Origin: an uncultured virus (IMG/VR IMGVR_UViG_3300021255_001403)
Lineage: Duplodnaviria > Heunggongvirae > Uroviricota > Caudoviricetes
DNA length: 64,000 nt
Virus record (IMG/VR): IMGVR_UViG_3300021255_001403
Direction: 5' to 3' (one strand)
Positions 10,975 to 48,426 of the stretch are shown here, one piece after another; the stretch's first letter is position 1; each line of letters opens with the position of its first letter. Both the position numbers and the translations under genes were made by a program. The notes beneath the pieces are model-generated. The model saw only the letters and a list, made by a program, of their open reading frames with translations, ran no database searches and was not told the origin of the DNA.

Positions 10975-13900
10975 ATGTCGAAATACTATAGAATTACATA
11001 TGATAATATTGGAATATATGAAGCCTTAAAACGTAAAGTAGATTTTGTAGAATGGAGGAATATACTAAATCAATCTACTTGGTTACCTAAACCACCAATG
11101 TATGATGATACTTGTATATCCTATTTTACTGAGAGTGGTTATAAGAAGTTTAATACCAATACAATGCCTATCGTAATTAAATACTTAGATAAAGATAAAA
11201 TCAATATAAAAGAAGTTACAGAATTAATCGGAGATATATTATATCGAGATAAATACCAAGTTGTAGTAAGACAAGTAATAACAAATAAGACAAACGCAAT
11301 TAAAGAGGAGATGGATATATCATCAATAGAAATATTGGATGAATCTTCAAAATCTAAGAATTACAAAAAGAGATATAAGAACCTAGATGATTTCTGTAAA
11401 GATTTTGATACTACAGAAGAAGCCATGGCTTATTATAAGTTTCATAACGTTAAGTGGCCAGAAGGAAAGACAAACGATAGACCTTTTAGTTGGCCTGATG
11501 ATATATTGAAAACGTTTGAAGGTAATTGCTGGGATCATGCCATATTTTTCTACTATTTCTGTAAAAAGAAAAATATTCCAGCCAATATTTATCGTATAGC
11601 CGTATTCGCAGAACCAGCTACAGATAATGATGGTCTTAGATGGTGGTGCATGGGTCATATAGTCAATGTATGTAAATCAGATACCGGATGGTATGTGTGC
11701 GACTATGGAGAAGGACCAGACACTGGGTTATTTGGTCCATTTAGATCAGAGAAAGAAACCATGGAAACATACAAAAAAATATTCTTATCCAGAATCAAAA
11801 TGAATATAAAACAAAAATATTCTACTGGATTCTTTTCTCATGTAACTGATGCATATTATTGTACTAGTGCAGAACAATATAAGGTTTATGATAAGTATTA
11901 TGGAAGACACGATATCTATCAGAGTGATGAAATTTTCTTAAATACTCTAAAATTACCATACGATAATAAAGTTACCAAATATACTTTTATAGATTCAATG
12001 AAGAATACTATAAAGAAAAATTTTGGATTATTGTATGATAAATTAGGTTCTTTATTCGAAGAGAGTAATATAGGAAATGGTGATAATATGATAGTGAATG
12101 AGTCGAGGCTATCTAATAGTATAAATTTATCTAAAGATGATTTTGATGAAAATATGCATTTCATAAAAACTCATGCTAAAACTCCTAAAGATCTTAATAC
12201 TATACTTAATAAATTCGATTATGGATACTTCACTAAAAATGGTACTTATTATGATGAAAACCATGTTGGAGACTTTAGTGATTATACCACAATGGATCCA
12301 CATGACGTTATAAAATTTGCTGTTGGAGTATGTTGGGATTTTACAGAAACCGAAGCATATTTATTTGATAAACTCTTTAATTATAAGATAACTAATAAAG
12401 CACTTAAGAATGGAACCTATTCTCTTTATTATATGGAGCATGATGATTCCAAAGGAATATCTCCTACTCACACTTGGTTAGCTTATATGGAAAATGATAA
12501 GGTATATCTATTCGAATCATCTTGGTTTAAGTATCAAGGTATACATGAATTCAATTCTGAAATGGAAATAATGGAGTTCTACGATAAAGCTCAAAGAGAG
12601 AATGAAGTTAAGAGAGGTAATAAATTACGTGGAGGTATAGTCATTAAGTATCTTCCTGTAAGAAAATATGGATTGAAACCATTAGAGTTTATGACACATA
12701 TTTACAAATGTAATACCTCTAGACTAATGAAAGTATCTCCTGAGTTTCCTATACATTGTAATATTCAACCTATAAAAGAGGATACTGATATGATATTCAA
12801 TGAAGAGTTAGAAAAGGGAAATAATGTGATATTCTCAGAAGATGATATATACTGCAATATGGATAAATGGGATAATCATGAATCCCACGTATTATTCATT
12901 CTGGGATTATCTGCTTCTGGTAAATCTACCTTATCTAGAAAATTAGCTGAAAAATATAAATGTAATCTTATAGAATTAGATGTGATAGCATTTGCGATTA
13001 CTGGTGAAAAAGCACATGATAAGGGAAGACAAACTTGGGAATATATTAAAAAAGCTGACCACATGCTATATAAATTTATGAAAGAAAAAGGATTAGAACC
13101 TGACTTTTTGAGGCATGTGCCATGTAGTAGTCATCAACTACCTGTATTAGATAAGAAAGATGAAAGAGAAAAACAAAAATGGATAGATAAATATATCCAT
13201 TGGGTTTGTTTCGAGCAAAAAGAGAGGTGCGTTTTAGAAGGAGGTCATGCTTGTGTAACTATAGCAAATCATAAAGAATATAGAGAGTTCCCTATTATAT
13301 TCAAGGGTTCATCTTTATTAAAATCTATGATAAGACGAGTTAAAAGAACTTGGATAGATGATAATGAACCTATGGGGCCTATTGAATTAGCCAAATATTT
13401 AGTTATCCTATATAAGCAATATGGTAAAATGTTTCCAGAAGTGAATGCTGCTAGAAATGCTGTAATAACAAAAGATAATTTTAAGATAATAAAAGAATAT
13501 AGAGATCTTGAGGATATTGATATGATCGTTAATGAATCTACTTTTATATCTGATAAAGATTTAGTATGGAATTTTGATAAATGGAAAAGAGGAGATATAA
13601 ATCTCCTGTTTATCTGTGGTTATTCTGGTGGTGGTAAGTCTACTTTATCTAGGATACTAGCTAAGAAATATAACTGTCCTCTTAGTGAAATGGATATGGA
13701 AAATCAAGAAATTAAAAAGACTTATCATAATGAATTATCTCAATATGGTCCTGGTGGTACATTTGGCGATCCTAAGAAGATGGGGTTTATAATTAATAAA
13801 TACATCGAAAGATATGGTAATAAAGAAAGACGTATAATAGAAGGAGTACAATTAGCTTCAGTAGATTTTAGTTTTATAAAAGATTATGCAGTTATATTCA

Positions 13901-15753
13901 AAGGAACCTCGGCTGTAACAGCATCTATGAGAGCTTGGAAAAGAGCATTTACTGATGATGAGAATGCTGAAAGATGGGCAGAAGATAAATCTACTTTAGG
14001 AAAATTAAAATATAAACTTCAACAAGGTCCTAATAGATTGAAGACTAATATCAATAAAGTAGGACCATTTATGGAAAAGTTCTATGCTGATATGAAGAAA
14101 GCTGGAGCTAAAGAAATGGAGTATGAGGATATCGTAAATCCTAATACAGAAGATTTTCATATTCCTCTTCTTATTAGTGGAGATGATGTATACGTTAATT
14201 TTGATAAATGGAAAGAAGGAAAGTGTAATACTCTTTTCATTCTTGGATTATCAGGTTCTGGTAAATCTACTCTTGGTAAGAAATTAGCTAAAGCTAGAAA
14301 AGCGTTCTATGTAGAAACTGATAAGATAAGAGGAAACTCTCATTACTCTGATGAAGAGATGAGAAAAGATCATCCTCTTATTTTAAGATGGTTTGAATCT
14401 CAGTATGATAAAGATAGGAGAGGGTTTAATAGTCTAGATAAGTCTATTCGTAAAAAAGAATGGGATAGATGTGTAGAATGGATGATTAATCAAAAAGAAC
14501 CTAAAGTAATAGAAGGTGCTATAGAAGAGTTCTTATTAGAGCATCCAGAATACTCTGAATATCCTATAGTGTTTAAGAATACCAGTATGCTTAAATCTAT
14601 AGTAAGAATGACTCGTAGACAATTATTCGAAGTCGATAAAAATAAGGTAGATGATTATAATACTCAATTCTTAAAATGGTGGTTAAAACATATTCAAAAG
14701 TATAATGATATGAGAAAGAGGAATAACAACGTGAGAGATACTATTATCGGTAAGAAAGAGAATAGTTATGAAGTAATGAAAGAGTCTAGAACTCTTAAAG
14801 ATGATGATGTGTATTTCATAAAATGCAAATGGGAAGATGGAGATAAATCTGGTTATACTGTAAATGCTTGTAAAAATATTAATGGAGAAGTTTATAGAGT
14901 ACGTACTGAGATGCTGGTAATTAAAGATGGTAAAGTATTATGCGTTAAAGATTACCATGATAATCTTGGTTTAGGATATAAACTTCCTGGAGGTTCTGTA
15001 GAAAAAGGTGTATCTTATGCAGAGCAAGCAGCAGAAGAAGTTAAAGAAGAAGCTCGTATTATTATAAATCCCAAATCTATTCTAGATACTGGTATTACTT
15101 ATATTCGTAAGTATACTAAACAACCTAGATGGGTATCGCATTTAACTCCTCCTATTCCTTATGTAGGTGGTATATCTTATGTATACGTGGGAGAGTATAA
15201 ATCAGATTTTAATGGAGATATACCAGATGTGCATAGAGATGATGGATTTTATAAACGTGCTAGATTCTATGATATTGATGAGATTAATTGGATACCAGAG
15301 CATAAGAAAGCATTAGATATGTATCTTGAAAAGAATATGCAAAAACAAGATCAATCTAAAGATACCTATGAAAATGCTCTTAAGATATTTAACTCTCTTA
15401 CTCCTCAAGAGCAGTATTGGATGGATGATAGATATGTAGATTCTCCTCATACATTCTATCGTAAAGTGCACTTTATTGGTAGAAAACCTGTTGGGTTTGT
15501 AGATACCTATAGATTCCATCCTAATGATCCTGGTGTGATTATAGTATTAGCAGTTAATAAATCTTATAGAGGTAAAGGTATTGCTAGTGATTTAGTAAAA
15601 TCTGCTACTCTTTATTGTAAATCTAAAGGTATTAAGAAGATTATATGGAGAGCCCATAAAGATAACTATGCTTCTATACAGTTAGCTAAGAAACTAGGAT
15701 ATACTAAGACTAATGAAAACGAGAAAAGTTATAGATTTGAAAAAACTCTATAG
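10975..15753 (+). CDS. Polyvalent protein: N-terminal unknown domain, 2 transglutaminase/papain-like domains, 3 P-loop kinase-like domains, NUDIX hydrolase, GNAT acetyltransferase
   Basis: GNCWDHA..GH..D and GVCWDF..THTW..E triads; Walker A GLSASGKST, GYSGGGKST, GLSGSGKST; Nudix box PGGSVEKGVSYAEQAAEEVKEEA; GNAT LAVNKSYRGKGIA..NYASIQLAKKLGY; late-type promoter AACA-N6-TA at 10933. Confidence 0.85.
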   Translation: MSKYYRITYDNIGIYEALKRKVDFVEWRNILNQSTWLPKPPMYDDTCISYFTESGYKKFNTNTMPIVIKYLDKDKINIKEVTELIGDILYRDKYQVVVRQVITNKTNAIKEEMDISSIEILDESSKSKNYKKRYKNLDDFCKDFDTTEEAMAYYKFHNVKWPEGKTNDRPFSWPDDILKTFEGNCWDHAIFFYYFCKKKNIPANIYRIAVFAEPATDNDGLRWWCMGHIVNVCKSDTGWYVCDYGEGPDTGLFGPFRSEKETMETYKKIFLSRIKMNIKQKYSTGFFSHVTDAYYCTSAEQYKVYDKYYGRHDIYQSDEIFLNTLKLPYDNKVTKYTFIDSMKNTIKKNFGLLYDKLGSLFEESNIGNGDNMIVNESRLSNSINLSKDDFDENMHFIKTHAKTPKDLNTILNKFDYGYFTKNGTYYDENHVGDFSDYTTMDPHDVIKFAVGVCWDFTETEAYLFDKLFNYKITNKALKNGTYSLYYMEHDDSKGISPTHTWLAYMENDKVYLFESSWFKYQGIHEFNSEMEIMEFYDKAQRENEVKRGNKLRGGIVIKYLPVRKYGLKPLEFMTHIYKCNTSRLMKVSPEFPIHCNIQPIKEDTDMIFNEELEKGNNVIFSEDDIYCNMDKWDNHESHVLFILGLSASGKSTLSRKLAEKYKCNLIELDVIAFAITGEKAHDKGRQTWEYIKKADHMLYKFMKEKGLEPDFLRHVPCSSHQLPVLDKKDEREKQKWIDKYIHWVCFEQKERCVLEGGHACVTIANHKEYREFPIIFKGSSLLKSMIRRVKRTWIDDNEPMGPIELAKYLVILYKQYGKMFPEVNAARNAVITKDNFKIIKEYRDLEDIDMIVNESTFISDKDLVWNFDKWKRGDINLLFICGYSGGGKSTLSRILAKKYNCPLSEMDMENQEIKKTYHNELSQYGPGGTFGDPKKMGFIINKYIERYGNKERRIIEGVQLASVDFSFIKDYAVIFKGTSAVTASMRAWKRAFTDDENAERWAEDKSTLGKLKYKLQQGPNRLKTNINKVGPFMEKFYADMKKAGAKEMEYEDIVNPNTEDFHIPLLISGDDVYVNFDKWKEGKCNTLFILGLSGSGKSTLGKKLAKARKAFYVETDKIRGNSHYSDEEMRKDHPLILRWFESQYDKDRRGFNSLDKSIRKKEWDRCVEWMINQKEPKVIEGAIEEFLLEHPEYSEYPIVFKNTSMLKSIVRMTRRQLFEVDKNKVDDYNTQFLKWWLKHIQKYNDMRKRNNNVRDTIIGKKENSYEVMKESRTLKDDDVYFIKCKWEDGDKSGYTVNACKNINGEVYRVRTEMLVIKDGKVLCVKDYHDNLGLGYKLPGGSVEKGVSYAEQAAEEVKEEARIIINPKSILDTGITYIRKYTKQPRWVSHLTPPIPYVGGISYVYVGEYKSDFNGDIPDVHRDDGFYKRARFYDIDEINWIPEHKKALDMYLEKNMQKQDQSKDTYENALKIFNSLTPQEQYWMDDRYVDSPHTFYRKVHFIGRKPVGFVDTYRFHPNDPGVIIVLAVNKSYRGKGIASDLVKSATLYCKSKGIKKIIWRAHKDNYASIQLAKKLGYTKTNENEKSYRFEKTL

Positions 15754-15768
15754 AAAGGATAATATATC

Positions 15769-16338
15769 ATGATAAAGATTTATAAAATCGACACTCTTAC
15801 AAATATCGTATCTATTGATGTGAATAAGTACACTTATAGAGATATAGCTATGGTAGCTTATATCTGCTGGAAGTTAGATAGTAAAATCTGTTTAGCTCAG
15901 AATAAAGATCTCATGGTTAAAGGCTATACTAATATCTTAGTTAATAACGATAGAGATATAAAAGCTATCAATTGTGCTTATATGATATTAGAGAATCCTC
16001 ATAATAAGTACTCTGTACAAGATGTATACCATATCTTATCATATAAACACTTTGAATTCTTATATGAAGCTATAAAGTTAGCTATCAATATTAAGAAAGA
16101 AACTTATACTATAAACTCGTATCCTACTATAATAGAATTGATACAATTCGCTATAGGGTTTATCAAAGATAATTATGGTAGGGATTATAATGAGTATCTT
16201 TATAGATATTCTTCTTTCATACGAGAGATAAACCATAAAGCTGTAAGAGGTAAAGATCCTAATACTATTGATAGTGATATATTCAATTTTGATGATACTG
16301 CTTTTAGGTATGATCTGATTGAAAAGGGGAGAGAATGA
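15769..16338 (+). CDS. Hypothetical protein
   Basis: SD GAAAGGA. Confidence 0.7.
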   Translation: MIKIYKIDTLTNIVSIDVNKYTYRDIAMVAYICWKLDSKICLAQNKDLMVKGYTNILVNNDRDIKAINCAYMILENPHNKYSVQDVYHILSYKHFEFLYEAIKLAINIKKETYTINSYPTIIELIQFAIGFIKDNYGRDYNEYLYRYSSFIREINHKAVRGKDPNTIDSDIFNFDDTAFRYDLIEKGRE

Positions 16339-16339
16339 T

Positions 16340-16726
16340 ATGAAAAAGTTTTTGATTGGTATTCTTATAGCACTAACACTAGTCTTCTTAGGTCATAATA
16401 TATCAGAAGCTTTAACACATTATCACTACTATCTTTGGTCTGATACGCATTATGCATTCTGGTTAGATGCTAATAGTATAAAAACTAGCGATAGTAGATC
16501 TTGGGCTGCTTTTAATATTATATTGGAAGATATGAGTACAGGAGAACAGGTGTATGATGTAAACCCAATCCTATTCTACAAAAAAGATGGAGAATGGTAT
16601 GTATCCTTCTATAGAGATTGCATGGAACCAAAACCACTCAAAGACTATAGTGATTGGTGGCAACCATGGGCATTAGATTGGTTAATCACCAAAGGATATA
16701 TAAGAGATAAGGTGAATGAGTTATGA
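16340..16726 (+). CDS. Secreted or membrane-anchored protein
   Basis: Signal-peptide-like MKKFLIGILIALTLVFLGHNISEA; SD GGGGAGAG. Confidence 0.7.
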   Translation: MKKFLIGILIALTLVFLGHNISEALTHYHYYLWSDTHYAFWLDANSIKTSDSRSWAAFNIILEDMSTGEQVYDVNPILFYKKDGEWYVSFYRDCMEPKPLKDYSDWWQPWALDWLITKGYIRDKVNEL

Positions 16727-17001
16727 TAGTAATATTCAAGAAGCGTAAAACTATCTATGATGCTAATAGTATAGAGTTAGCAGAAAGAGAGAATAGTAAA
16801 TGTATAATAATAAGATATGGTTATGGCGATAAAGCTACAATCATATCAAAATCTGACCTAAATAAAATCAAAGGACTTAGATACTTTGAGACTAAAGAAA
16901 GAAGATTCAAAATAGACTCTAGTATCACTGTAGATGAGTTCTATGAATTCATTCAAGAATATACTATAGCGAATGGGAAACTAATACTTCCATTTATGTA
17001 A
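16723..17001 (+). CDS. Hypothetical protein
   Basis: ATGA overlap, GGTGA upstream. Confidence 0.65.
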   Translation: MIVIFKKRKTIYDANSIELAERENSKCIIIRYGYGDKATIISKSDLNKIKGLRYFETKERRFKIDSSITVDEFYEFIQEYTIANGKLILPFM

Positions 17002-17066
17002 TCAATGTTTACCAGAGAGCTGCATAATAGCAGCTCTCTATTTTATATTCAAAAGGAGAGGTTATT

Positions 17067-17438
17067 ATGTATACTAAAGAAAATCGAATGGTAGATTACA
17101 TGGAAGGAAATGAGATATTCGAAAACAATAAGAAGTTTCTAGATATCTGCGTTACTAGAGCTATACAGTATGTCTCTAGTAACTATCTTAGATCACCTTA
17201 CAATAAGATCGTAGCCGTAAAGATGTCTGATATCTTATGTGATCTTATAGATAAACAGACTGAAGAAGAAAGCAGAAAGTATGAAGATATCCATAGGCTA
17301 TTAGAAGCTAGATGTGATTCTGGTATATCCTTAAGATACTTCACCTATAAGCTAACGGAAAAGTTATACTCGTATGGTTACTGTGTTGCTACGGTAAACT
17401 ATGGTAAAGGTTATGCAGAATTTGTAATTGAGGAGTGA
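17067..17438 (+). CDS. Hypothetical protein
   Basis: SD AAGGAGAGG. Confidence 0.7.
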   Translation: MYTKENRMVDYMEGNEIFENNKKFLDICVTRAIQYVSSNYLRSPYNKIVAVKMSDILCDLIDKQTEEESRKYEDIHRLLEARCDSGISLRYFTYKLTEKLYSYGYCVATVNYGKGYAEFVIEE

Positions 17439-17456
17439 TAGAGTCTATAATTTCGA

Positions 17457-17475
17457 TTATATACTATATCTGTGA
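17457..17475 (+). promoter_or_regulatory. Early-type promoter TTATATACTATA-N3-GTGA driving a ncRNA
   Basis: Matches recurrent motif. Confidence 0.65.
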
Positions 17476-17662
17476 ATAACAAACAGAACCTATGTCGGAT
17501 GGTGGATTACCCCGCAATGTAGGCTGTGCTGAAAGGCTGTTTGTTTGAATAAGCACGTAAGTATGAAAGTGAAGCTGGGGACTCCACCCTAAACCAGCAA
17601 CTGCTTGGTGGGTGCACACACTAAGCAAAAAAGAATGGGACTGATCACCTCATTCTTTTTTT
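17476..17662 (+). ncRNA. Structured, probably pseudoknotted ncRNA of unknown class
   Basis: GC-rich island with no SD-led ORF; several stems, GNRA loops, GGTGGA/TCCACC loop-loop complementarity; own promoter and terminator (17627-17662). Confidence 0.65.
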
Positions 17663-17715
17663 GTTTATTGGGATAACAATTTGGTAATATCTTATATTAT
17701 AGAGGAGGAAATAAA

Positions 17716-18384
17716 ATGTCTTATTTGTCTGCCAATTCGCTAGCATCATATAATGAATCGTCAATGACATTAAATGAGGATACCAAAACAGTATTACACA
17801 ATCTTTGGACCAGATTCTTTTTTGGTAATCCACATGCATTGAATGCTAAATCTTGGTCTTGGTTTGTAAATTTATTCGCATCATTACCAGTTAAACTTAT
17901 GAATCCTTATTGGCTTTTGCAGTTCTTTGCTTCTATAGCAGGATTTACTGATAAGATAGACGTTGAGTATTTCAACTCGATGTATCACTTCGATGAGTCA
18001 TTGAGAAACAAAATACTTTCTTGGTGTAAAAAGAATGATGGATTTAAAATAGATAGCGACTCTAAAAGATATCTTACTGGTTTCTTAGGAGACTTTTCTG
18101 TAGATGATAATACGGTAGGTACTACTAATGTAAGACTTGCTACTAGAGGTATTGGTAAAGGTGTATTAACTACATCTACTGCTTGTATTCCTATTATAGA
18201 TAAAGATGGTTTCTATTGCGTATATCCTACTTTCAATAGTAATAAGATTTTAGATTTGAAAGTATTATGCGTTAATTATGAAAATGAGAATACTAAGAAT
18301 AAATTGATAAAGCCTTTCTTCTTTGTAAAGACTTTGAAAGAGTTCGATTCAGTAAGTGAGAAATCTTATAAAAATATAATCTAA
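17716..18384 (+). CDS. Probable virion/head protein (N-terminal YNES, LNED Glu motifs)
   Basis: Late-type promoter at 17675; SD GAGGAGG. Confidence 0.65.
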   Translation: MSYLSANSLASYNESSMTLNEDTKTVLHNLWTRFFFGNPHALNAKSWSWFVNLFASLPVKLMNPYWLLQFFASIAGFTDKIDVEYFNSMYHFDESLRNKILSWCKKNDGFKIDSDSKRYLTGFLGDFSVDDNTVGTTNVRLATRGIGKGVLTTSTACIPIIDKDGFYCVYPTFNSNKILDLKVLCVNYENENTKNKLIKPFFFVKTLKEFDSVSEKSYKNII

Positions 18385-18484
18385 TCATCTAGAGAGGTTA
18401 ATACCTCTCTAGATATATACTCCTTCAACATTTGAATAAGTGGTATTGGACTCACTAAATCATGCTTATAGGAGGTGAATAAGT

Positions 18485-19207
18485 ATGAGAGAGTATACCC
18501 CAGTGGTATTACCACAAGCAAAAGAAAAGATTGTTTTAGGTTCTATACCACCATTTGAAATACCGGATTGGGATTTATCCAATCCAAAAACTCTTGCGAA
18601 ATTTTTTTTCAATATAGAAAGAATATGTAGAAACTCTAGATCTTATAAGAGAATGATAAATTTTCTTAAAGAGTATGTAGATATGGCACATTGCTCTTTC
18701 TATAAGAATACTAATGGTATGGATATGAATGATGTACAAATTCATATTCATCATGAACCATTTACACTCTTCGATATCGTTAGTATTATATATGCTAAAC
18801 GTGTAGCAAATCATGAAATTATTACTGAGAATCAGATAGCTAAAGAAGTAATGTGGAATCATTATAGAATGGCTGTAGGATTAATTCCTTTATCTGAATC
18901 AGTTCATGATATCGTACACTCAGGATTTTTATTTATACCAACTACTAATGTATTTGGTTATTATAGAAAATTTTTTGAGGATTATGAACCTTATATAGAT
19001 CCAAGAATGAAAGCTGTATTAGCTAATAATGAGAAAGCTTCTTTAGCTTATGATTATGCTAAAGAGACTAAAGTCTTACATGTTAGCTCAGTTTATATAG
19101 ATCCATCTGGAAGTTATGACTTCCCACAAACTAAGGATATTATCGAGCTACTTAAACGAAAGATTAAAGAGTTCGATAGTGAAATAGAAAATAAACAAAT
19201 ATTATGA
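18485..19207 (+). CDS. Jumbo-phage protein with HNH-like metal-binding motifs
   Basis: C..HIHHEP...LIPLSESVHDIVH; late-type promoter at 18427; SD GGAGGTGA. Confidence 0.55.
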   Translation: MREYTPVVLPQAKEKIVLGSIPPFEIPDWDLSNPKTLAKFFFNIERICRNSRSYKRMINFLKEYVDMAHCSFYKNTNGMDMNDVQIHIHHEPFTLFDIVSIIYAKRVANHEIITENQIAKEVMWNHYRMAVGLIPLSESVHDIVHSGFLFIPTTNVFGYYRKFFEDYEPYIDPRMKAVLANNEKASLAYDYAKETKVLHVSSVYIDPSGSYDFPQTKDIIELLKRKIKEFDSEIENKQIL

Positions 19208-19217
19208 GGTGATTTTA

Positions 19218-19541
19218 ATGTATACAGATTACGATTTAGGTGAACCACTTGATGAAGGTGCGTTCGCTACTCTAAAAGAAAAGATGAGTAAAGGATATAA
19301 TAAAGCTAAACAGTTTGTGCATAAGCATAATGGTAAGATTGGTGCAGGGTTAGCTGGTTTAGGTGCATTACATGCTACTCAAGGTAATCTTGTTTCTGCT
19401 GGTATTTATGGTGGTTTGGGTTATAAACTGCTTAAAGCCCATGGTCGTAAGGTAGATCGCCAGAAATGGGATAATATGAGTCACGCTGATAAAGAATATG
19501 CTAGATATCAGGCTCTTAAGAAAATTGCAGATAAAGATTAA
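19218..19541 (+). CDS. Leader (YTDYDLGEPLDE) plus cationic glycine-zipper peptide
   Basis: Leader shared with 27876..28193; GAGLAGLGAL, AGIYGGLG. Confidence 0.7.
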   Translation: MYTDYDLGEPLDEGAFATLKEKMSKGYNKAKQFVHKHNGKIGAGLAGLGALHATQGNLVSAGIYGGLGYKLLKAHGRKVDRQKWDNMSHADKEYARYQALKKIADKD

Positions 19542-19567: not shown

Positions 19568-20452
19568 ATGTACTTTAAAGAAGATACTACTTGTAAATTA
19601 CACAGTTGCTTTGATAATATCCCTAGACTTATACAAGAGGATTATAACTCTTATACAGCTAAGAGTGTTTGCATAAGAGAAACCCTTAATGGTAATAACG
19701 TAATTCGATTCTCAGAAATCATGAATTATGCTAACCATAATGGGTTGTCTTTAGATGAGGCAATTGATGATGTATTAATGACTCACCCTCTTGTAATGAA
19801 ACCTGTATTCACAGTTAATAATATAACCTATCTCACTAACGAATCTTATTATGATTTAGTGAATGAGTCTTTAGGCAATTATATGCTTACTTTGGAACAG
19901 GTTGATTTATCTACTGATCCATTTTATCAGAGCTTATCTGAAGCAGTAGAGACTGATATTTCTAATAATAAATACTACTTTACTGAAGAAGTAATAAATG
20001 AGTTTGTTAATGAATTAATGGATCAGGCTAAGGGATATTTAGATCAAGGTAAACAATTTGTATCTGATAACTTTGGCAAAATGAAAAATGCTGTTATGCA
20101 ATCAGATACAGTTAAAAATATAACTGATAAGGCATCAGGTCTTAAAGATACTGCTATGGGTTATGTAAATAAATATGGTGATCAAGCATCAGAATTTATT
20201 TCCCATGGTATTAAAACTGTTACTGGTAAAGATGTATCTCCTGATCAGGTTAAGAATGGTGTAGTTAAAGGTGTTGCTGGTTTAGGTATTACTGCATTAG
20301 CTGCTAAAGGTTTAACAGCTCTTCGTAATATGCTTAATCAGACTCAAAATCAAGCTGCATCTGCATCTCCTGATAGGCAAGGTGTTTTATCTAGAATAAT
20401 CGAAAAGATTAAAGCTGCTATTGCTAGAATAACTGGTGGTGCACCAGCTTAA
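19568..20452 (+). CDS. Probable internal head protein, RENS-domain paralog family
   Basis: VCIRE..VIRFSEI; many hydrophobic-X-E motifs; GVAGLGITALA segment. Confidence 0.65.
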   Translation: MYFKEDTTCKLHSCFDNIPRLIQEDYNSYTAKSVCIRETLNGNNVIRFSEIMNYANHNGLSLDEAIDDVLMTHPLVMKPVFTVNNITYLTNESYYDLVNESLGNYMLTLEQVDLSTDPFYQSLSEAVETDISNNKYYFTEEVINEFVNELMDQAKGYLDQGKQFVSDNFGKMKNAVMQSDTVKNITDKASGLKDTAMGYVNKYGDQASEFISHGIKTVTGKDVSPDQVKNGVVKGVAGLGITALAAKGLTALRNMLNQTQNQAASASPDRQGVLSRIIEKIKAAIARITGGAPA

Positions 20453-23923: not shown

Positions 23924-23959
23924 CTTTTTATATAAAAAATCTAAAGGGAGGATTTGATC

Positions 23960-24268
23960 ATGAGTTTCGTTGATCACTTATTTCGTCCTGTAGACGAAGG
24001 TTGTGGCTGTGAAAAATGTGGTGTAAGTATGGGCACCGGTCTTGGTGTACCGTATTCTGATGCCAATAAATTATGGAAGATTCCTATAAATCAGTATCAG
24101 GATAGTGATGCAAACTTTGTTGGTGATGGTGATGATCCTGCTACCAGCAATGCAAACGTTCCTGCTACTCTTGCAGCTCGGACTGCAGGTGGTGACCCGC
24201 ATCCCTCTACTCTTCGTAATGGTATAAATAAACGTGCTCTTGCTGGTTTATATACCCCTAAGGACTAA
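23960..24268 (+). CDS. Small protein with FVDHLF...VDE leader and a CGCEKC motif
   Basis: SD GGGAGG; leader like 28196 and 28534. Confidence 0.65.
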   Translation: MSFVDHLFRPVDEGCGCEKCGVSMGTGLGVPYSDANKLWKIPINQYQDSDANFVGDGDDPATSNANVPATLAARTAGGDPHPSTLRNGINKRALAGLYTPKD

Positions 24269-25140: not shown

Positions 25141-26187
25141 ATGTTATTTACTGAAGATTCACTTATGACCGGTGTAAATGGTCTTTCTATATTGGATGAA
25201 TCCTGCTATATTGATTCCGATATTGCTACGCTGAAGACTGTTCCGGTTGTTGAGAATAGTACTCTGGGTGCAGCTGTTGTACGTTTCAGCGACATTGAAG
25301 CTCTGGCTGAATCCAATGGTTGTGATTTCATTGATGCTATGGAAGCTGTAGCAGAACAGAATGAAATTGATCCGGAATATCTGGCTGTAGCTGTTGATGA
25401 AGCTCGTATGATTGAAGAGCCGGAACTGGTTTATGAACTGGCTAATGTAGTTATCAATCCGCAGTCTGAAAATAGCTTAGCTTATCAGTTCTGCGAAGCT
25501 TGCCTTGATGGTTACATTGATTCCGAAGGTGATGAAACCTTCTTGGAAGCTATGATCGACGAAGAAGTAATGTTCGTTGATGAAGCTAAATCCGTACTCG
25601 GTCGTGTTGTTGATAGCATTGGTAGCAAAGCTAAAGGTGCATATGATGTACTGGCTGGTAACAACACTGATCGTCTTCGTGGTCAGGCTCATCAGTTCCA
25701 GCGCAATGTAAATACTGCTAAGGCTGATGCTAAAGCTCGTGGTGAACGTTATGGTATGCGTTCTAGTGCTGGTTCTCAGGCTTATGAAGAGTATAATGAC
25801 CTGAAGAAGCTTAAGAATCCGCATGTAGCAGCTCTTAAGAAAGAATCTCGTATTCGTAAAGGTGCTGCTATCGGTGCTGGTTTAGCTGCTGCTGGTGGTG
25901 CTGCTTACCTGCTCAGCCGTAATAAAGATAAGGTTAAATCCGCTGGTGGCGCACTCTCTGCAGCTTCTTCTGCTAAGCTGGATAAGATTGTTGCTTCCGC
26001 TAATGGTAAACCGAAATCCTGGATTTCCCAGAAGATCGCTGCTCTGCGCGGTATGTATTCCAAATGGTTGCAGAAAGCTCAGGCAGAATCCGATGCTGGT
26101 AAAGCTAGTGTAATTAAGAAATTCGCTGCAAAGATTCTTGCTTGCATCGACGCTCTTATGAAGAAACTGGAAAATGCTACGGCTTGA
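25141..26187 (+). CDS. Probable abundant internal head protein, RENS domain plus Gly-zipper plus C-terminal helical module
   Basis: VPVVENSTLG; GAAIGAGLAAAGGAAYLL; GC-richer codon usage like the capsid gene. Confidence 0.75.
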   Translation: MLFTEDSLMTGVNGLSILDESCYIDSDIATLKTVPVVENSTLGAAVVRFSDIEALAESNGCDFIDAMEAVAEQNEIDPEYLAVAVDEARMIEEPELVYELANVVINPQSENSLAYQFCEACLDGYIDSEGDETFLEAMIDEEVMFVDEAKSVLGRVVDSIGSKAKGAYDVLAGNNTDRLRGQAHQFQRNVNTAKADAKARGERYGMRSSAGSQAYEEYNDLKKLKNPHVAALKKESRIRKGAAIGAGLAAAGGAAYLLSRNKDKVKSAGGALSAASSAKLDKIVASANGKPKSWISQKIAALRGMYSKWLQKAQAESDAGKASVIKKFAAKILACIDALMKKLENATA

Positions 26188-28195: not shown

Positions 28196-28513
28196 ATGCA
28201 TAATGATTTTGAAGAGCATTTGTTTAATCCCGAAGTAATTCAGGAAGGCGTATTTGGTGCTATTAAGAATAAGATTAAATCTGGTGCTAGTTTCTTAAAT
28301 CGTAATAAGGGTAAGATACTTGGTGCTGGTTTAGCTGCTGGTGCAGGTTATGCAGCTTATAAAAATCGTGATAATATAAAAGATCGTTATAATAAATTCC
28401 GTGGTAATAATGGTGATGGTGCCCAGGATGCTAATAAGCCTCAGTCTCAGGAAGATAGGCTGAAAGCTCTTCAGGACAAAGTAGACAAGATGGGTCAGAA
28501 CCAGCAGTCTTAA
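28196..28513 (+). CDS. Leader (DFEEHLF..IQE) plus cationic peptide GVFGAIKNKIKSGASFL...GAGLAAGAGYAAY
   Basis: SD GGAGTGA; leader similar to 28534 and 23960. Confidence 0.7.
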   Translation: MHNDFEEHLFNPEVIQEGVFGAIKNKIKSGASFLNRNKGKILGAGLAAGAGYAAYKNRDNIKDRYNKFRGNNGDGAQDANKPQSQEDRLKALQDKVDKMGQNQQS

Positions 28514-29218: not shown

Positions 29219-29355
29219 TATTAATTCCTCCTTAATTAAAATAAAGACATTACTATTTTGTCTTTGGTAATGAATAGTGTAAAAGTGTATATTTTCAATT
29301 GTATATTATAGAGGTGATAATAAGATTATTCATCTACAAGAAAGGAAGATTTATT

Positions 29356-29571
29356 ATGTTTAACTATGTAAAATCCGAAGGAACTTTCAGCACTGTATCT
29401 GGTCTTCAGGTTGGAGGTAAAGTAGTGTACTCGTCGGTTACCCAGAATAAGGAACAGGCTGAAAACGCCGAGGCCCTCGGCATGATCATTCTCGCTGCAG
29501 GTACTGCAGCAGCCTGCTACGCAGGTAATCAGATTTTTAAAGGTGCGAAAGCACTCTGGAAAAAATTCTGA
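29356..29571 (+). CDS. Small early membrane protein
   Basis: Early-type promoter 29299-29317; TM-like LGMIILAAGTAAACYAG; GC-richer codons. Confidence 0.65.
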   Translation: MFNYVKSEGTFSTVSGLQVGGKVVYSSVTQNKEQAENAEALGMIILAAGTAAACYAGNQIFKGAKALWKKF

Positions 29572-29581
29572 GACCAAAAAG

Positions 29582-29629
29582 AAAAAAGATAGCAATAAGA
29601 GCTGGCGCTTCATAGTGCTATCTTTTTTT
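29582..29629 (+). terminator. Terminator element, copy 1 (shared with 33928..33976)
   Basis: AAAAAAGATAGCA...GCTGGCGCT..ATAGTGCTATCTTTTTTT. Confidence 0.75.
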
Positions 29630-29739
29630 GCTTTTTAAACTTATTTTTGATTATATATTATATTAGTGAATAAGAGTAAATAATACTCTTATAAAAGAAT
29701 TTCATTTAGTCTTTTTTTAAAGAAAAGGAGAGGATAACT

Positions 29740-30018
29740 ATGTTTGGTAACAACACTCAGGCTCAAGTTCAGGTTCCCCAGCAGCAGCAGGCAGCACAAC
29801 CCGCTTATGTCCAGATTGATAAACACGGAAACGTGTATATCGTTGAGAAGCAGACCTTTACGGATGCTTTGAAAACCGGTGCGGCTACAGGTCTCGCTGT
29901 TGGTGGTACCATGATCGCAGCTACGGCACTTGGACAGGCTCTTGGCGTGTTTGAAAAACCTGGTGTGCAGCAGGCAGTCGAAAAGTTTGGTGATTACGTC
30001 ACTAAAGTTATTCGTTAA
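29740..30018 (+). CDS. Small early Gln-rich membrane protein
   Basis: Early-type promoter 29651-29669; SD AAGGAGAGG; GAATGLAVGGTMIAATALG. Confidence 0.7.
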   Translation: MFGNNTQAQVQVPQQQQAAQPAYVQIDKHGNVYIVEKQTFTDALKTGAATGLAVGGTMIAATALGQALGVFEKPGVQQAVEKFGDYVTKVIR

Positions 30019-30104
30019 CTTCCTGCGATACCAAGAAAAGAAGGCCTCCCACCGGCCTTCTTTTTTTATCTTCTTCTTCACATTTTATTAAGAGGTGATG
30101 TAAA

Positions 30105-40077: not shown

Positions 40078-40090
40078 ACTTTAATGTTTC

Positions 40091-40128
40091 AAAAAAAAAT
40101 AAACCTGAGATATTAATCTCAGGTTATT
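40091..40128 (-). terminator. Terminator closing the minus-strand sRNA array
   Basis: AACCTGAGAT/ATCTCAGGTT stem, A9 on plus = U9 tail on minus. Confidence 0.7.
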
Positions 40129-40157
40129 TAAAAAGAATTGTGATAATAATTATGAGC

Positions 40158-40306
40158 TTAATAATGGTATGAAACTTTTATGCCCAAACATCAAAGGAGA
40201 AGTTCATATATAACACCACAATATTATGAACGGAGATAACCACCATGAGTATGCTTGCTATGGACTCGACCAAACCATAACAAACGATGTTTCATACCAT
40301 TGTTAA
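40158..40306 (-). ncRNA. Panhandle sRNA unit 1
   Basis: 18-bp terminal inverted repeat (40158-40175/40289-40306, 1 mismatch), internal hairpin, two UCUCC motifs. Confidence 0.55.
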
Positions 40307-40318
40307 ACTAATAATAAA

Positions 40319-40424
40319 TATAATAATACTATGAATGAATCGAGCCATAATGACACCGCTATGTATGCAAGCCAAGGAGATGATTTACTTACACAAAAGA
40401 AGATCCATTCATAGTATTATTATA
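40319..40424 (-). ncRNA. Panhandle sRNA unit 2
   Basis: 23-bp inverted repeat (40319-40341/40402-40424; single G-U on minus); AUCAUCUCCUU in loop. Confidence 0.55.
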
Positions 40425-40439
40425 ATTACTATAATAATA

Positions 40440-40612
40440 TAATAAGATACATAAGCAATGTGGAATCCAATCCATTAAGCAAGATCATAGTTTGTCCGTC
40501 CATTCACTTACCATCTGGAAATTGTATGTGTATTTTCAATACTCTTTAAATATTTAGCGTTCTTTTAATTCTTCGCTATAAGAATAGAGGTTTGTACTTA
40601 TGTATCTTATTA
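40440..40612 (-). ncRNA. Panhandle sRNA unit 3
   Basis: Perfect 16-bp inverted repeat (40440-40455/40597-40612); early-type promoter 40630-40612 abuts it. Confidence 0.55.
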
Positions 40613-46326: not shown

Positions 46327-48426
46327 TCACATTGGAATCTTAGTCTTAATGATTTCGAATAGTGCTTTAAACATAGCCCACATTCGTTCTATCATAGTCT
46401 TACTAATCTTAAGTACAGACTTATCGAATGGAGTTTGCTTATAATATTCGACGAAATCAAAACTGGGATCATTATCTAATATAGCAGCCATATACTTATT
46501 AAAGTCATTAAGTATAAAAGCTCTGGTTTTATAATAATAAGTAAGCTTTTCCTTATCTTGTATTTTCTTACGGGAATATATACGTTCTTCTATAAGAGTA
46601 TTCATATACCAAAGTTTAGCTACAAAATATTTCATAGCTTCAAAGTTTTTTACTCTGTGATAGTGTATAAGCATCTTATGGCATTTACTATATTCTACAG
46701 TAAAATTCATAGTCTTACTACGTTTAATAAATAAATTACCATCTTCATCAAACTCTACAGGAAGAGTAGTAACTTCTTGTACTGGTTGCATATTCAATAA
46801 TTCGAATGCTTTATCAGAACCAGTAATCTCTTCATACTCATCAAAAATCTCTAATTTAGTAAAACTATCTACTACGTCTTTATAAGTACCACAATCATTA
46901 AATAGATTAAATATAGATCCACCTATACTACCCTTTTTATTTCCTACCATAAATGGGTCATCTTTATCATTAAGTATACCATTCATAAGATTCATGGTAA
47001 ATAATTTCTTATTTGCTATCTTAGGTCTAGATGTAGTAGATTTGGATACTGATTTAAACGATTGAAATATATTACCCTTATTAAAATTTTCATACTTACT
47101 CATCTCAATTTTCTTCTTAGTATCGGGAGAAGTTTTAGAGTAATATACTGATACCGCTGGATAATCTAATTTATCAATAGCATCTTTAAGGTCTGCTTTA
47201 CTAGCTATTCTACCACCTACTAATTCATCCCAATTACTACTCTTAGTAGGATTGGTACTAACAAATACTCTACTCTCTTTACTTTCTTTTTTATCTGTAT
47301 TCAACTCATTAAGTATAACTACTGCTATACCAGACAATTCTTTATTGTCTTCATGTATAGTAGTAGGAGTAGATGTGAGATCTATAAAGTTAAAATTGCA
47401 ATTCTCTTTAAATACTTTATTAGACCTACTAGCTACAGTATCTTCTGAAATTTCATTTATCTTAAATGCTGGATTCCACCCAACACTAATAAGATCTTCT
47501 TTAGTGGATGACTCATCAGCTATTATACGTCTATATTCTTTATTAAAATTTATCGAAGACTTTATACCAACACACTTCTCACAATAACTTTCAAATAGTA
47601 TATTATCTTTTAACACTTCTTCATCTAATATACCTTCTATTTCCCATGGTAAAAAATATGGAGACTTACCTAAATAATTGGCATTCTCATTCGTCTTAAT
47701 CTTATTAATCACTACTTCTTTGGATTCATCATAGATAGACTTATCTACAACAGATTCAGGCTGACTCATATCTAATAACATAAGACTTTCTACTATATCA
47801 TTAGAGTTCATAATCTGTTCACTTACAGAACTCATCACTAAATCAGTCTCATATCTATCATCTTCATAAAAGTCACTATCTTCTTGTAGTATTCTGCCAT
47901 ATTCTTGGTAATAAACCTCTGATACTGGGAAACCATATATTTCTTTAGACTTTTCATCAGAGAATCTTCTATCTTCATAATTTTGGTTATTATACTTAAT
48001 CCAAGACTCATTTAACTGATATTTATCCAATGAATTCACTGGTATAAGTATAACATCATTATCTACCATACATGATTCTGCTAAACTATTTTTATAATCA
48101 CTTGGAGTATATTCATAATTAGCATCATAACCATTAATATCTTTATTTAAGAATCTACGACGATTGATTCTATATAACTCTTCACAGTTTTTATCAAATA
48201 GTAAATAAGATTTATGATTTGCAATCATTTTAAGAGAAAATGGGGATGCACTAAATGCATACCAATCATTCTTTAATTCTTCTTCATTTTCATAATAAGG
48301 TTTTATAAGTTTAAGACCAGGATATGTAGTTTCAAATCTTTTAACTTCTTTTAATTTATTATCATCTATAGTATTTTTAATTAGATCTCTACGACCTTCT
48401 AACAAATCTGAATTGTCGTATAACAT
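46327..48426 (-). CDS. Probable virion (head) protein with many hydrophobic-X-E motifs
   Basis: LLEG, LAES, LNES, IVES, LFES, IHED; SD AAGGAGG. Confidence 0.6.
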   Translation of the reverse strand: MLYDNSDLLEGRRDLIKNTIDDNKLKEVKRFETTYPGLKLIKPYYENEEELKNDWYAFSASPFSLKMIANHKSYLLFDKNCEELYRINRRRFLNKDINGYDANYEYTPSDYKNSLAESCMVDNDVILIPVNSLDKYQLNESWIKYNNQNYEDRRFSDEKSKEIYGFPVSEVYYQEYGRILQEDSDFYEDDRYETDLVMSSVSEQIMNSNDIVESLMLLDMSQPESVVDKSIYDESKEVVINKIKTNENANYLGKSPYFLPWEIEGILDEEVLKDNILFESYCEKCVGIKSSINFNKEYRRIIADESSTKEDLISVGWNPAFKINEISEDTVASRSNKVFKENCNFNFIDLTSTPTTIHEDNKELSGIAVVILNELNTDKKESKESRVFVSTNPTKSSNWDELVGGRIASKADLKDAIDKLDYPAVSVYYSKTSPDTKKKIEMSKYENFNKGNIFQSFKSVSKSTTSRPKIANKKLFTMNLMNGILNDKDDPFMVGNKKGSIGGSIFNLFNDCGTYKDVVDSFTKLEIFDEYEEITGSDKAFELLNMQPVQEVTTLPVEFDEDGNLFIKRSKTMNFTVEYSKCHKMLIHYHRVKNFEAMKYFVAKLWYMNTLIEERIYSRKKIQDKEKLTYYYKTRAFILNDFNKYMAAILDNDPSFDFVEYYKQTPFDKSVLKISKTMIERMWAMFKALFEIIKTKIPM

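Follow-up and report, generated by a model that had tools for sequence, protein, structure and literature searches.

A predicted early small RNA unit of no recognised family in an uncultured AR9-like jumbo phage of the ruminant gut

Intergenic small RNAs have been found by ONT-cappable-seq in the giant phages 201phi2-1 and phiKZ, and 3 of the 11 small RNAs reported from 201phi2-1 are intergenic (PMC11512511). Giant phages that encode RNA polymerases of their own are known to make small RNAs, and a function has been assigned to almost none of them. In AR9, early promoters were mapped by dRNA-seq and primer extension, conform to AAATATATATTAT-(6N)-G+1 and were ascribed to the injected virion polymerase, and the late promoter consensus is AACA-6N-TA (PMC5312081, with the early promoters in its Table S2). 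Here we describe a short intergenic unit (17457-17662, plus strand) in the window, i.e., the whole stretch of 64,000 nucleotides of viral DNA that was analysed; the unit probably encodes an orphan early small RNA of this known general kind.

The phage and the layout of the unit

The window comes from an uncultured AR9-like jumbo phage, the habitat of which is the gut of ruminants. The assignment follows from a multisubunit RNA polymerase subunit encoded in the window (phrog_2986), the best matches of which are in the AR9/PBS1-like Firmicutes jumbo phages Listeria LPJP1, Staphylococcus S6 and Bacillus Goe21 (about 30% identity), and from a neighbouring 240-aa protein (18485-19207), the AR9 homologue of which is a hypothetical protein annotated gp241. 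Near-identical or related DNA was present in sheep and goat gut metagenomes, and contigs from three studies other than the possible source (X3, X7 and X8) cross the whole unit. The unit is flanked on the plus strand by a gene for a 123-aa protein (17067-17438, with its stop codon at 17438) and by a gene for a 222-aa protein (17716-18384). The neighbouring proteins belong to no family in PHROGs or Pfam; the Atlas leads for them were weak (SPP1_portal clusters at 0.92 with 135 shared features, DUF4007 at 0.87) and had no tie to any RNA. Elsewhere, the window encodes a 1592-aa protein (10975-15753) in which three P-loop kinase-like (AAA_33-type) regions are combined with a NUDIX domain and, at the C terminus, a GNAT acetyltransferase. 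Contigs from an RNA library of the source sample (X20), which indicate presence only, cover 19234-19500 alone within 16000-19500, a stretch inside a gene for a 110-aa protein and the start of the gene after it; their failure to reach the unit counts neither for nor against its expression.

The early-type promoter of the original prediction was borne out by the distribution of its motif. Its core, TTATATACTAT (17457..17467, plus strand), resembles the AR9 early consensus, and the full motif, TTATATACTAT-ATCTGT-G (17457-17474), has the AR9-type arrangement of an extended AT-rich consensus, 6 nt and then a G start. The pattern [AT][AT]ATATA[CT]TAT-6N-[GA] occurs in 13 copies in the window, whereas mononucleotide shuffles contain 2.5 on average and never more than 8. 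Twelve of the copies are intergenic, most of them immediately 5′ of a ribosome-binding site, and the only one within an ORF is at 47586 on the minus strand; the copy of the unit is as good as those that precede genes. By the AR9 rule, transcription would start at G17474 (plus strand), 6 nt past the motif. The 5′ end of the feature as first delimited (from 17457) is promoter and not transcript. A sigma-70-like sequence, TTGTAA-18-TATAAT (17422..17451, plus strand; 10 of 12 matches), lies at the end of the upstream gene and is probably incidental, the region having 12 such promoter-like sites where 9.8 are expected. Two other copies of the early motif (29302 and 29654) stand before GC-rich stretches (GC up to 0.59) in the interval 29302-30100, where overlapping ORFs of 90-130 codons are found on both strands.

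The 3′ end of the unit is an intrinsic terminator (17627..17662, plus strand), as had been claimed: a GC-containing hairpin (17628-17660) with a 12-pair stem and the 9-nt loop ACUGAUCAC directly precedes a U7 tract. The hairpin was present in every fold, with a pairing probability of about 1; it is missing from the output of a simple terminator scan because of the loop limit of 8 used there. Beyond it lies a late-type promoter-like sequence, AACA-ATTTGG-TA (17675..17686, plus strand), which is outside the RNA, precedes the gene at 17716-18384 and delimits the unit on its 3′ side. AACA-6N-TA was found no more than 80 nt from the start in 9 of 70 ORFs, against a background of 0.03 per 80 nt.

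Between the predicted start and the terminator lies a GC-rich, ORF-less body of 153 nt (17474..17626, plus strand). The window is AT-rich (mean GC 0.317, s.d. 0.062 in 80-nt windows), and the GC-rich island that had first drawn attention was recovered, with peaks of 0.48 in 100-nt windows and 0.51 in 80-nt windows (17478-17660). When compared with the list of ORFs in the window, it is the only such island that is clearly outside ORFs. GC-rich patches that code for glycine-rich stretches explain several other GC islands of the window. The plus strand of the unit has only short frames (9, 18 and 23 codons), all of which lack a Shine-Dalgarno sequence, in line with the earlier statement that there is no ORF led by one; the real genes of this phage have strong ribosome-binding sites. 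We conclude that the unit is non-coding. It also belongs to no recognised family: the suggested search of Rfam (version 15) at gathering thresholds gave no match across the 64 kb, a search relaxed to E 10 over 17300-17800 gave five matches at chance level (E 4.7-8.6, 15-16.5 bits), and ARAGORN identified no tRNA or tmRNA gene in the window.

Because the gene at 17716-18384 has a late-type promoter of its own, the unit stands alone, and the claim of a stand-alone unit agrees with all parts of this layout (an early promoter motif, a terminator, no coding frame and a separate late-type promoter for the next gene). The explanation that we prefer, with slightly better than even confidence, is that the unit forms an early gene in its own right, the product of which would be a non-coding RNA of about 189 nt; as to mechanism, our best guess is a base-pairing regulator that acts in trans. 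Production of the RNA, its early timing and its action are inferred.

A role in cis, the main rival, is unlikely in our judgement. The unit might be the 3′UTR and terminator of the upstream gene and, for transcripts from the early promoter, a long, prematurely terminated leader that limits early read-through into 17716-18384, a gene that would then be expressed mainly from its late promoter. Since no other terminator was found from the stop codon at 17438 to 17627, the hairpin must also end the transcripts of the upstream gene. The literature has parallels for such an arrangement: AR9 genes with both an early and a late promoter are described as continuously expressed, early 5′UTRs of up to 340 nt are found in Table S2 of the same study (PMC5312081), and 8 of the 11 small RNAs reported from 201phi2-1 arise from premature termination in 5′UTRs (PMC11512511). 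However, the terminator pairs with a probability of about 1 and no alternative antiterminator pairing was seen in the folds, the late-type promoter sits past the terminator, and a plain spacer or 3′UTR leaves both the GC content and the 97.4% conservation described below unexplained.

Fold of the RNA and the loop-loop complement

The original prediction combined several stems, two GNRA hairpins and a kissing-loop pseudoknot into a compact RNA. The stems P1 (17478-86/17537-45), which encloses P2 (17489-98/17512-23; together 17478..17545, plus strand), P5 (17574..17598, plus strand) and P6 (17603..17626, plus strand) can indeed form with standard pairs at these positions, but the pairing probability computed for P1 is only about 0.1 and the body as a whole folds unremarkably. 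In P5 a GCUGG/CCAGC stem closes a C-rich loop of 15 nt (GGACUCCACCCUAAA); the pairing probability of this hairpin varies from 0.3 to 0.8 according to the ends chosen for the RNA. P6 has 8 pairs and the loop GGUGCACA, which contains the palindrome GUGCAC; with a pairing probability of about 1.0, it is, together with the terminator, the only robust helix. The originally proposed fold has an energy of -51.8 kcal/mol, compared with -52.9 for the minimum free energy (MFE) structure.

The body alone (17474-17627) has an MFE z-score of -0.38, with 69 of 200 dinucleotide shuffles folding as well or better, and its minus strand has a z-score of -0.49. The z-score of the whole unit (-2.78) is due to parts outside the body, chiefly the terminator, given the value for the body alone. 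Because the body folds no better than its shuffles, the structure lends no independent support to the unit.

The segment GGUGGAUUACCCC (17501..17513, plus strand) is complementary to 17577-17588 by 6+4 pairs, which could be read as a kissing loop or as a long-range helix. As had been noticed, GGUGGA (17501-06) in one loop is the exact complement of UCCACC (17583-88) in another; the complement itself stands, yet the same bases form an alternative helix and its chance probability is 0.03-0.18. When loops were shuffled, a 6-nt complement arose in 3% of cases for that pair of loops, in 6% for any pair of hairpin loops and in 18% for any two unpaired segments. In the MFE structure the identical bases make a plain long-range helix of 6+4 pairs (GGUGGAUUACCCC/GGGGACUCCACC) that excludes both P2 and P5.

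A compact RNA held together by this kissing-loop pseudoknot, acting as a ribozyme, a protein sponge or an anti-defence decoy, appears improbable. Apart from the exact complement, it can be said in its favour that the fold with local hairpins is within 1.1 kcal/mol of the MFE, the kissing energy being uncounted, that the variant C17588>U found in relatives turns the proposed G17501-C17588 pair into G-U and so retains a pair, and that P6 and the terminator hairpin are robust. Against it stand the chance level of the complement, the rival use of the same bases in the MFE structure, the z-score of the body, the absence of compensatory changes, and the lack of a match to a ribozyme or any other Rfam family even at E up to 10. 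The two GNRA hairpins did not hold up either: GCU-GAAA-GGC consists of 3 pairs, with C17537 also claimed by P1, and AC-GUAA-GU has 2 pairs and is not conserved, its loop being AUAA in the related locus L003. Beyond the 6-nt complement nothing points to a tertiary-folded RNA, and the body is not unusually stable; by these folding models a kissing-loop pseudoknot is possible yet unsupported. The most useful result is a negative one, in that the proposed tertiary fold rests on a complement at the level of coincidence.

A second unit with an early promoter was observed on the minus strand of the window (40085-40611). Its predicted start is near 40611, and about 520 nt separate this from a terminator near 40090-40130; only frames of 31-50 codons are present, none with an obvious ribosome site. 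Its predicted fold has three long closed domains formed by long, mostly perfect inverted repeats and an MFE z-score of -8.17 (none of 100 shuffles folds as well), and it gave no Rfam match in the search of the whole window. Judged by these computed folds, it makes a much stronger candidate for a structured RNA than does the unit at 17457-17662.

Relatives, conservation and a shared 3′ hairpin

No match to the unit was found by blastn against 50,697 phage records, no copy by an exact 27-mer search of IMG/VR, and no further copy by an exact 25-mer search of species genomes. Related loci were gathered by means of the 240-aa neighbour (1 IMG/VR locus and 53 metagenome loci). Among 55 related loci the RNA is carried only by L010 and L003 and is absent from the other 53; L010 is an identical 1.8-kb contig that may be from the same population. 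The 222-aa neighbour, used as a query in IMG/VR and the phage records, led to no homologue of the unit beyond these two. A covariance model built on the originally proposed fold recovered only the known copies in 602,195 bases of the 55 related loci and no copy in the complete 266-kb relative (L001). At the same position, L004 and L007 have ordinary promoter-leader gaps and were rejected as carriers of the RNA.

L003 differs from the window at six positions in 239 nt (97.5% identity): 17455, 17545, 17557, 17568, 17602 and 17638. The RNA itself is identical at 184 of 189 positions (97.4%) and its body at 149 of 153, whereas the whole upstream and downstream genes are 78.2% and 91.2% identical, respectively. 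At third codon positions identity to L003 is 68-89% (84 of 124 in the 123-aa protein gene, 192 of 223 in the 222-aa protein gene and 214 of 241 in the 240-aa protein gene), and Fisher tests of the RNA against these positions gave 2e-13, 3.5e-5 and 7e-4 in the same order. Conservation well above that of silent sites suggests selection on the RNA sequence itself, for which it is the best evidence available. The high identity could also derive from a patch of recent recombination: the alignment with L003 is a mosaic of more and less similar parts, one of which, between genes at 18385-18484, likewise reaches 98% identity.

The substitutions in L003 are scattered over the unit: 17545 (T>A) breaks the terminal pair of P1, 17557 changes the presumed GUAA loop to AUAA, 17568 and 17602 are linker positions, and 17638 changes a G-U pair of the terminator stem to A-U. 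Among the variants listed for the X3, X7 and X8 contigs, only C17588>U (X3 and X7) and one inserted G are inside the unit; the insertion is in X7, just 5′ of P5 (after 17573). None of these variants (the six in L003, of which four are substitutions in the body, and the two listed from the contigs) is compensatory, so they favour no fold over another. Covariation in homologues, which had been proposed as a check on the fold, speaks neither for nor against it: the only homologues, L010 and L003, are identical and 97.5% identical, respectively.

As improbable as the compact kissing-loop RNA, in our judgement, is the absence of any functional RNA, in which case a GC-rich remnant, decayed or acquired, would by chance sit 3′ of a promoter-like motif and 5′ of the terminator that serves the upstream gene. 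In favour of this, the region is an orphan (only 2 of the 55 related loci have it, and the complete 266-kb relative lacks it), the stability of the body is unremarkable, and the minus strand has an open frame of 62 codons with an A-G-L-G motif as in the glycine-rich paralogues of this phage. But a decaying fragment should diverge faster than its coding neighbours and this one diverges more slowly, and the promoter copy equals those before genes. The minus strand of the unit carries a 54-codon TTG frame containing A-V-A-G-L-G, which is without a well-placed ribosome site, matches no PHROG or Pfam family, and at the protein level is similar to none of the genes in the window (best E 0.31); a decayed glycine-zipper gene on the minus strand was rejected on this ground. 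In L003 the frame has two synonymous and two non-synonymous changes, and the +1 insertion after 17573, in an X7 contig of depth 44, shifts both this frame and the 9-codon plus-strand frame.

In some relatives a different non-coding region occurs: a conserved stretch of about 430 nt (1290-1745 in L001, about 1880-2350 in L054) directly follows the tRNA-Leu gene or genes, of which there is one in L001/L011 and there are two in L054. The two copies are 67% identical, that of L001 has a z-score of -3.26, and neither belongs to an Rfam family. L001/L011 have 55% identity to the window in the 240-aa protein. The loop core CUGAUCA is common to the terminators of the window, L003, L001/L011 and L054; the loop of L001/L011 is UCUGAUCAC where the window has ACUGAUCAC, and in L054 the stem sequence is changed and the loop core kept. 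L003 and L001 both carry AGAAUGAGA 5′ of the loop core, and on its 3′ side both have CCU and then AUUCUU, with one extra base in L003. Across the window, L003, L001 and L054, the four innermost stem positions are paired in 15 of 16 cells, compared with 31-50% in slid controls, and two of the four pairs change on both sides (G-C / U-A / C-G and U-A / A-U). Covariation was seen in the terminator stem only. The pattern CTGATCACCT[N]ATTCTT matched 17 loci in IMG/VR, of which the L001 contig alone has the hairpin and the others are chance matches. Homology of the bodies was considered and left unproven, as the common words are short (AGUAUGAAGG, GCUUGG and GUCUAUAA). On sequence grounds, what the RNA of the window appears to share with that of L001/L054 is a 3′ module and not the whole RNA.

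Both UGAUCA in the terminator loop and GUGCAC in the P6 loop are palindromes, which, speculatively, would permit loop-loop dimers. If the unit is real, the occurrence of the same 3′ hairpin loop across different ncRNAs of related phages would make it a possible protein-binding or dimerisation site. We have entertained, as a highly doubtful reading, that the 3′ hairpin with its palindromic (C)UGAUCA is a functional module common to otherwise unrelated ncRNAs of rumen AR9-like phages, serving loop-loop dimerisation or as a site for a phage protein, and that the RNA of the window, with its GUGCAC loop and 6-nt complement, multimerises early and is not a simple antisense RNA. A micro-peptide of 18 codons (17492-17548) or 9 codons (17564-17593) is very improbable indeed: both frames start with ATG and the sole L003 change in the longer one (17545) is synonymous, but, unlike the genes of the phage, neither has a Shine-Dalgarno sequence, and the 9-codon frame shows two amino-acid changes (17568 in L003; 17588 in X3 and X7) and is frameshifted in one relative.

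Proposed action and comparison with described RNAs

If the unit is, as we prefer, a gene for a trans-acting small RNA, a promoter of the virion RNA polymerase type, by analogy with AR9, would drive transcription from G17474, and transcription would end at the hairpin and U-tract (17627-17662), to give an RNA of about 189 nt that has no coding frame. The single-stranded C-rich loop of P5, and perhaps the 3′ hairpin too, may then pair with mRNAs in trans, for which the candidate targets are five sites in phage genes with GCUGGUUUAG or a 10-nt variant of it. The segment 17588-17601, which runs from the 3′ side of the P5 loop through the 3′ arm of that hairpin into three bases of linker, is complementary over 14 nt to a site at 20273 and over 11 nt to sites at 19353, 24240, 25875 and 28324; half of this stretch sits in the P5 stem. 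These counts refer to exact complements, a scan of the whole window with RNAduplex having given long-loop duplexes that were uninterpretable. At the protein level the candidate sites correspond to an A-G-L core within a glycine-rich stretch, which in several of the genes reads G-A-G-L-A. At least four complementary sites were reached by shuffled RNAs in 2.2% of 1000 trials; as the target idea is post hoc, this sequence-based p of about 0.02, taken before any correction, can serve as a tentative pointer. In the phage of L011 the target complementarity has no counterpart. Genes with the A-G-L glycine-rich stretch are found at 19209-19541, 19568-20452, 23954-24268, 25141-26187 and 28196-28513, where the stretch is encoded by the recurring word GCTGGTTTAG or a 10-nt variant.

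The sequence GAUCACCUC is similar to the anti-Shine-Dalgarno end of 16S rRNA, and at least four genes have GAGGUGAU ribosome sites that AUCACCUC complements; the best duplexes with ribosome-binding sites reflect merely the U-rich 3′ arm. An anti-Shine-Dalgarno mimic was rejected as the main reading, CCUC lying in the stem and L054 having CAACU instead. The likeness of GAUCACCUC, half of which is in the stem and which is altered in L054, is probably secondary.

RsaE/RoxS and the hairpins of RNAIII are C-rich-loop riboregulators of Firmicutes. As in these RNAs, the unpaired C-rich CUCCACCC (P5 loop) and UACCCC (P2 loop) of the RNA of the window could pair with G-rich sites in mRNAs. It differs in that it matches no such family in Rfam and that no more than 4 nt of a GGAGG-type site can pair with its loops, and its anti-Shine-Dalgarno-like CACCUC is half inside the terminator stem and changed in L054.

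With the non-coding region of L001/L011 and L054, the unit shares the CUGAUCA terminator loop and its position upstream of the same 240-aa protein gene on the same strand. Those RNAs differ in being more than twice as long and in adjoining tRNA genes, and the bodies show no detectable similarity; on the sequences compared, homology beyond the 3′ hairpin is unproven.

Like the early units of AR9, the unit has the promoter core, the spacing to a G start, an AT-rich genome around it and early and late promoters that are separate. It departs from them in one respect, for each early promoter listed in Table S2 of the AR9 study is assigned to a gene, whereas the unit of the window terminates before any gene is reached (PMC5312081).

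If real, the unit gives an uncultured rumen lineage an early, strongly conserved RNA without a family; as the evidence stands, it is another orphan candidate and not a new mechanism. As a predicted small RNA it is new and family-less, and stand-alone small RNAs of jumbo phages are already known from the 201phi2-1 and phiKZ work (PMC11512511). The RNAs described there are transcripts detected in Pseudomonas phages, whereas that of the window is predicted and belongs to a distant, AR9-like lineage. What they have in common, as far as those RNAs are described in that source, is their organisation as promoter-to-terminator units without a coding sequence in giant phages with multisubunit RNA polymerases.
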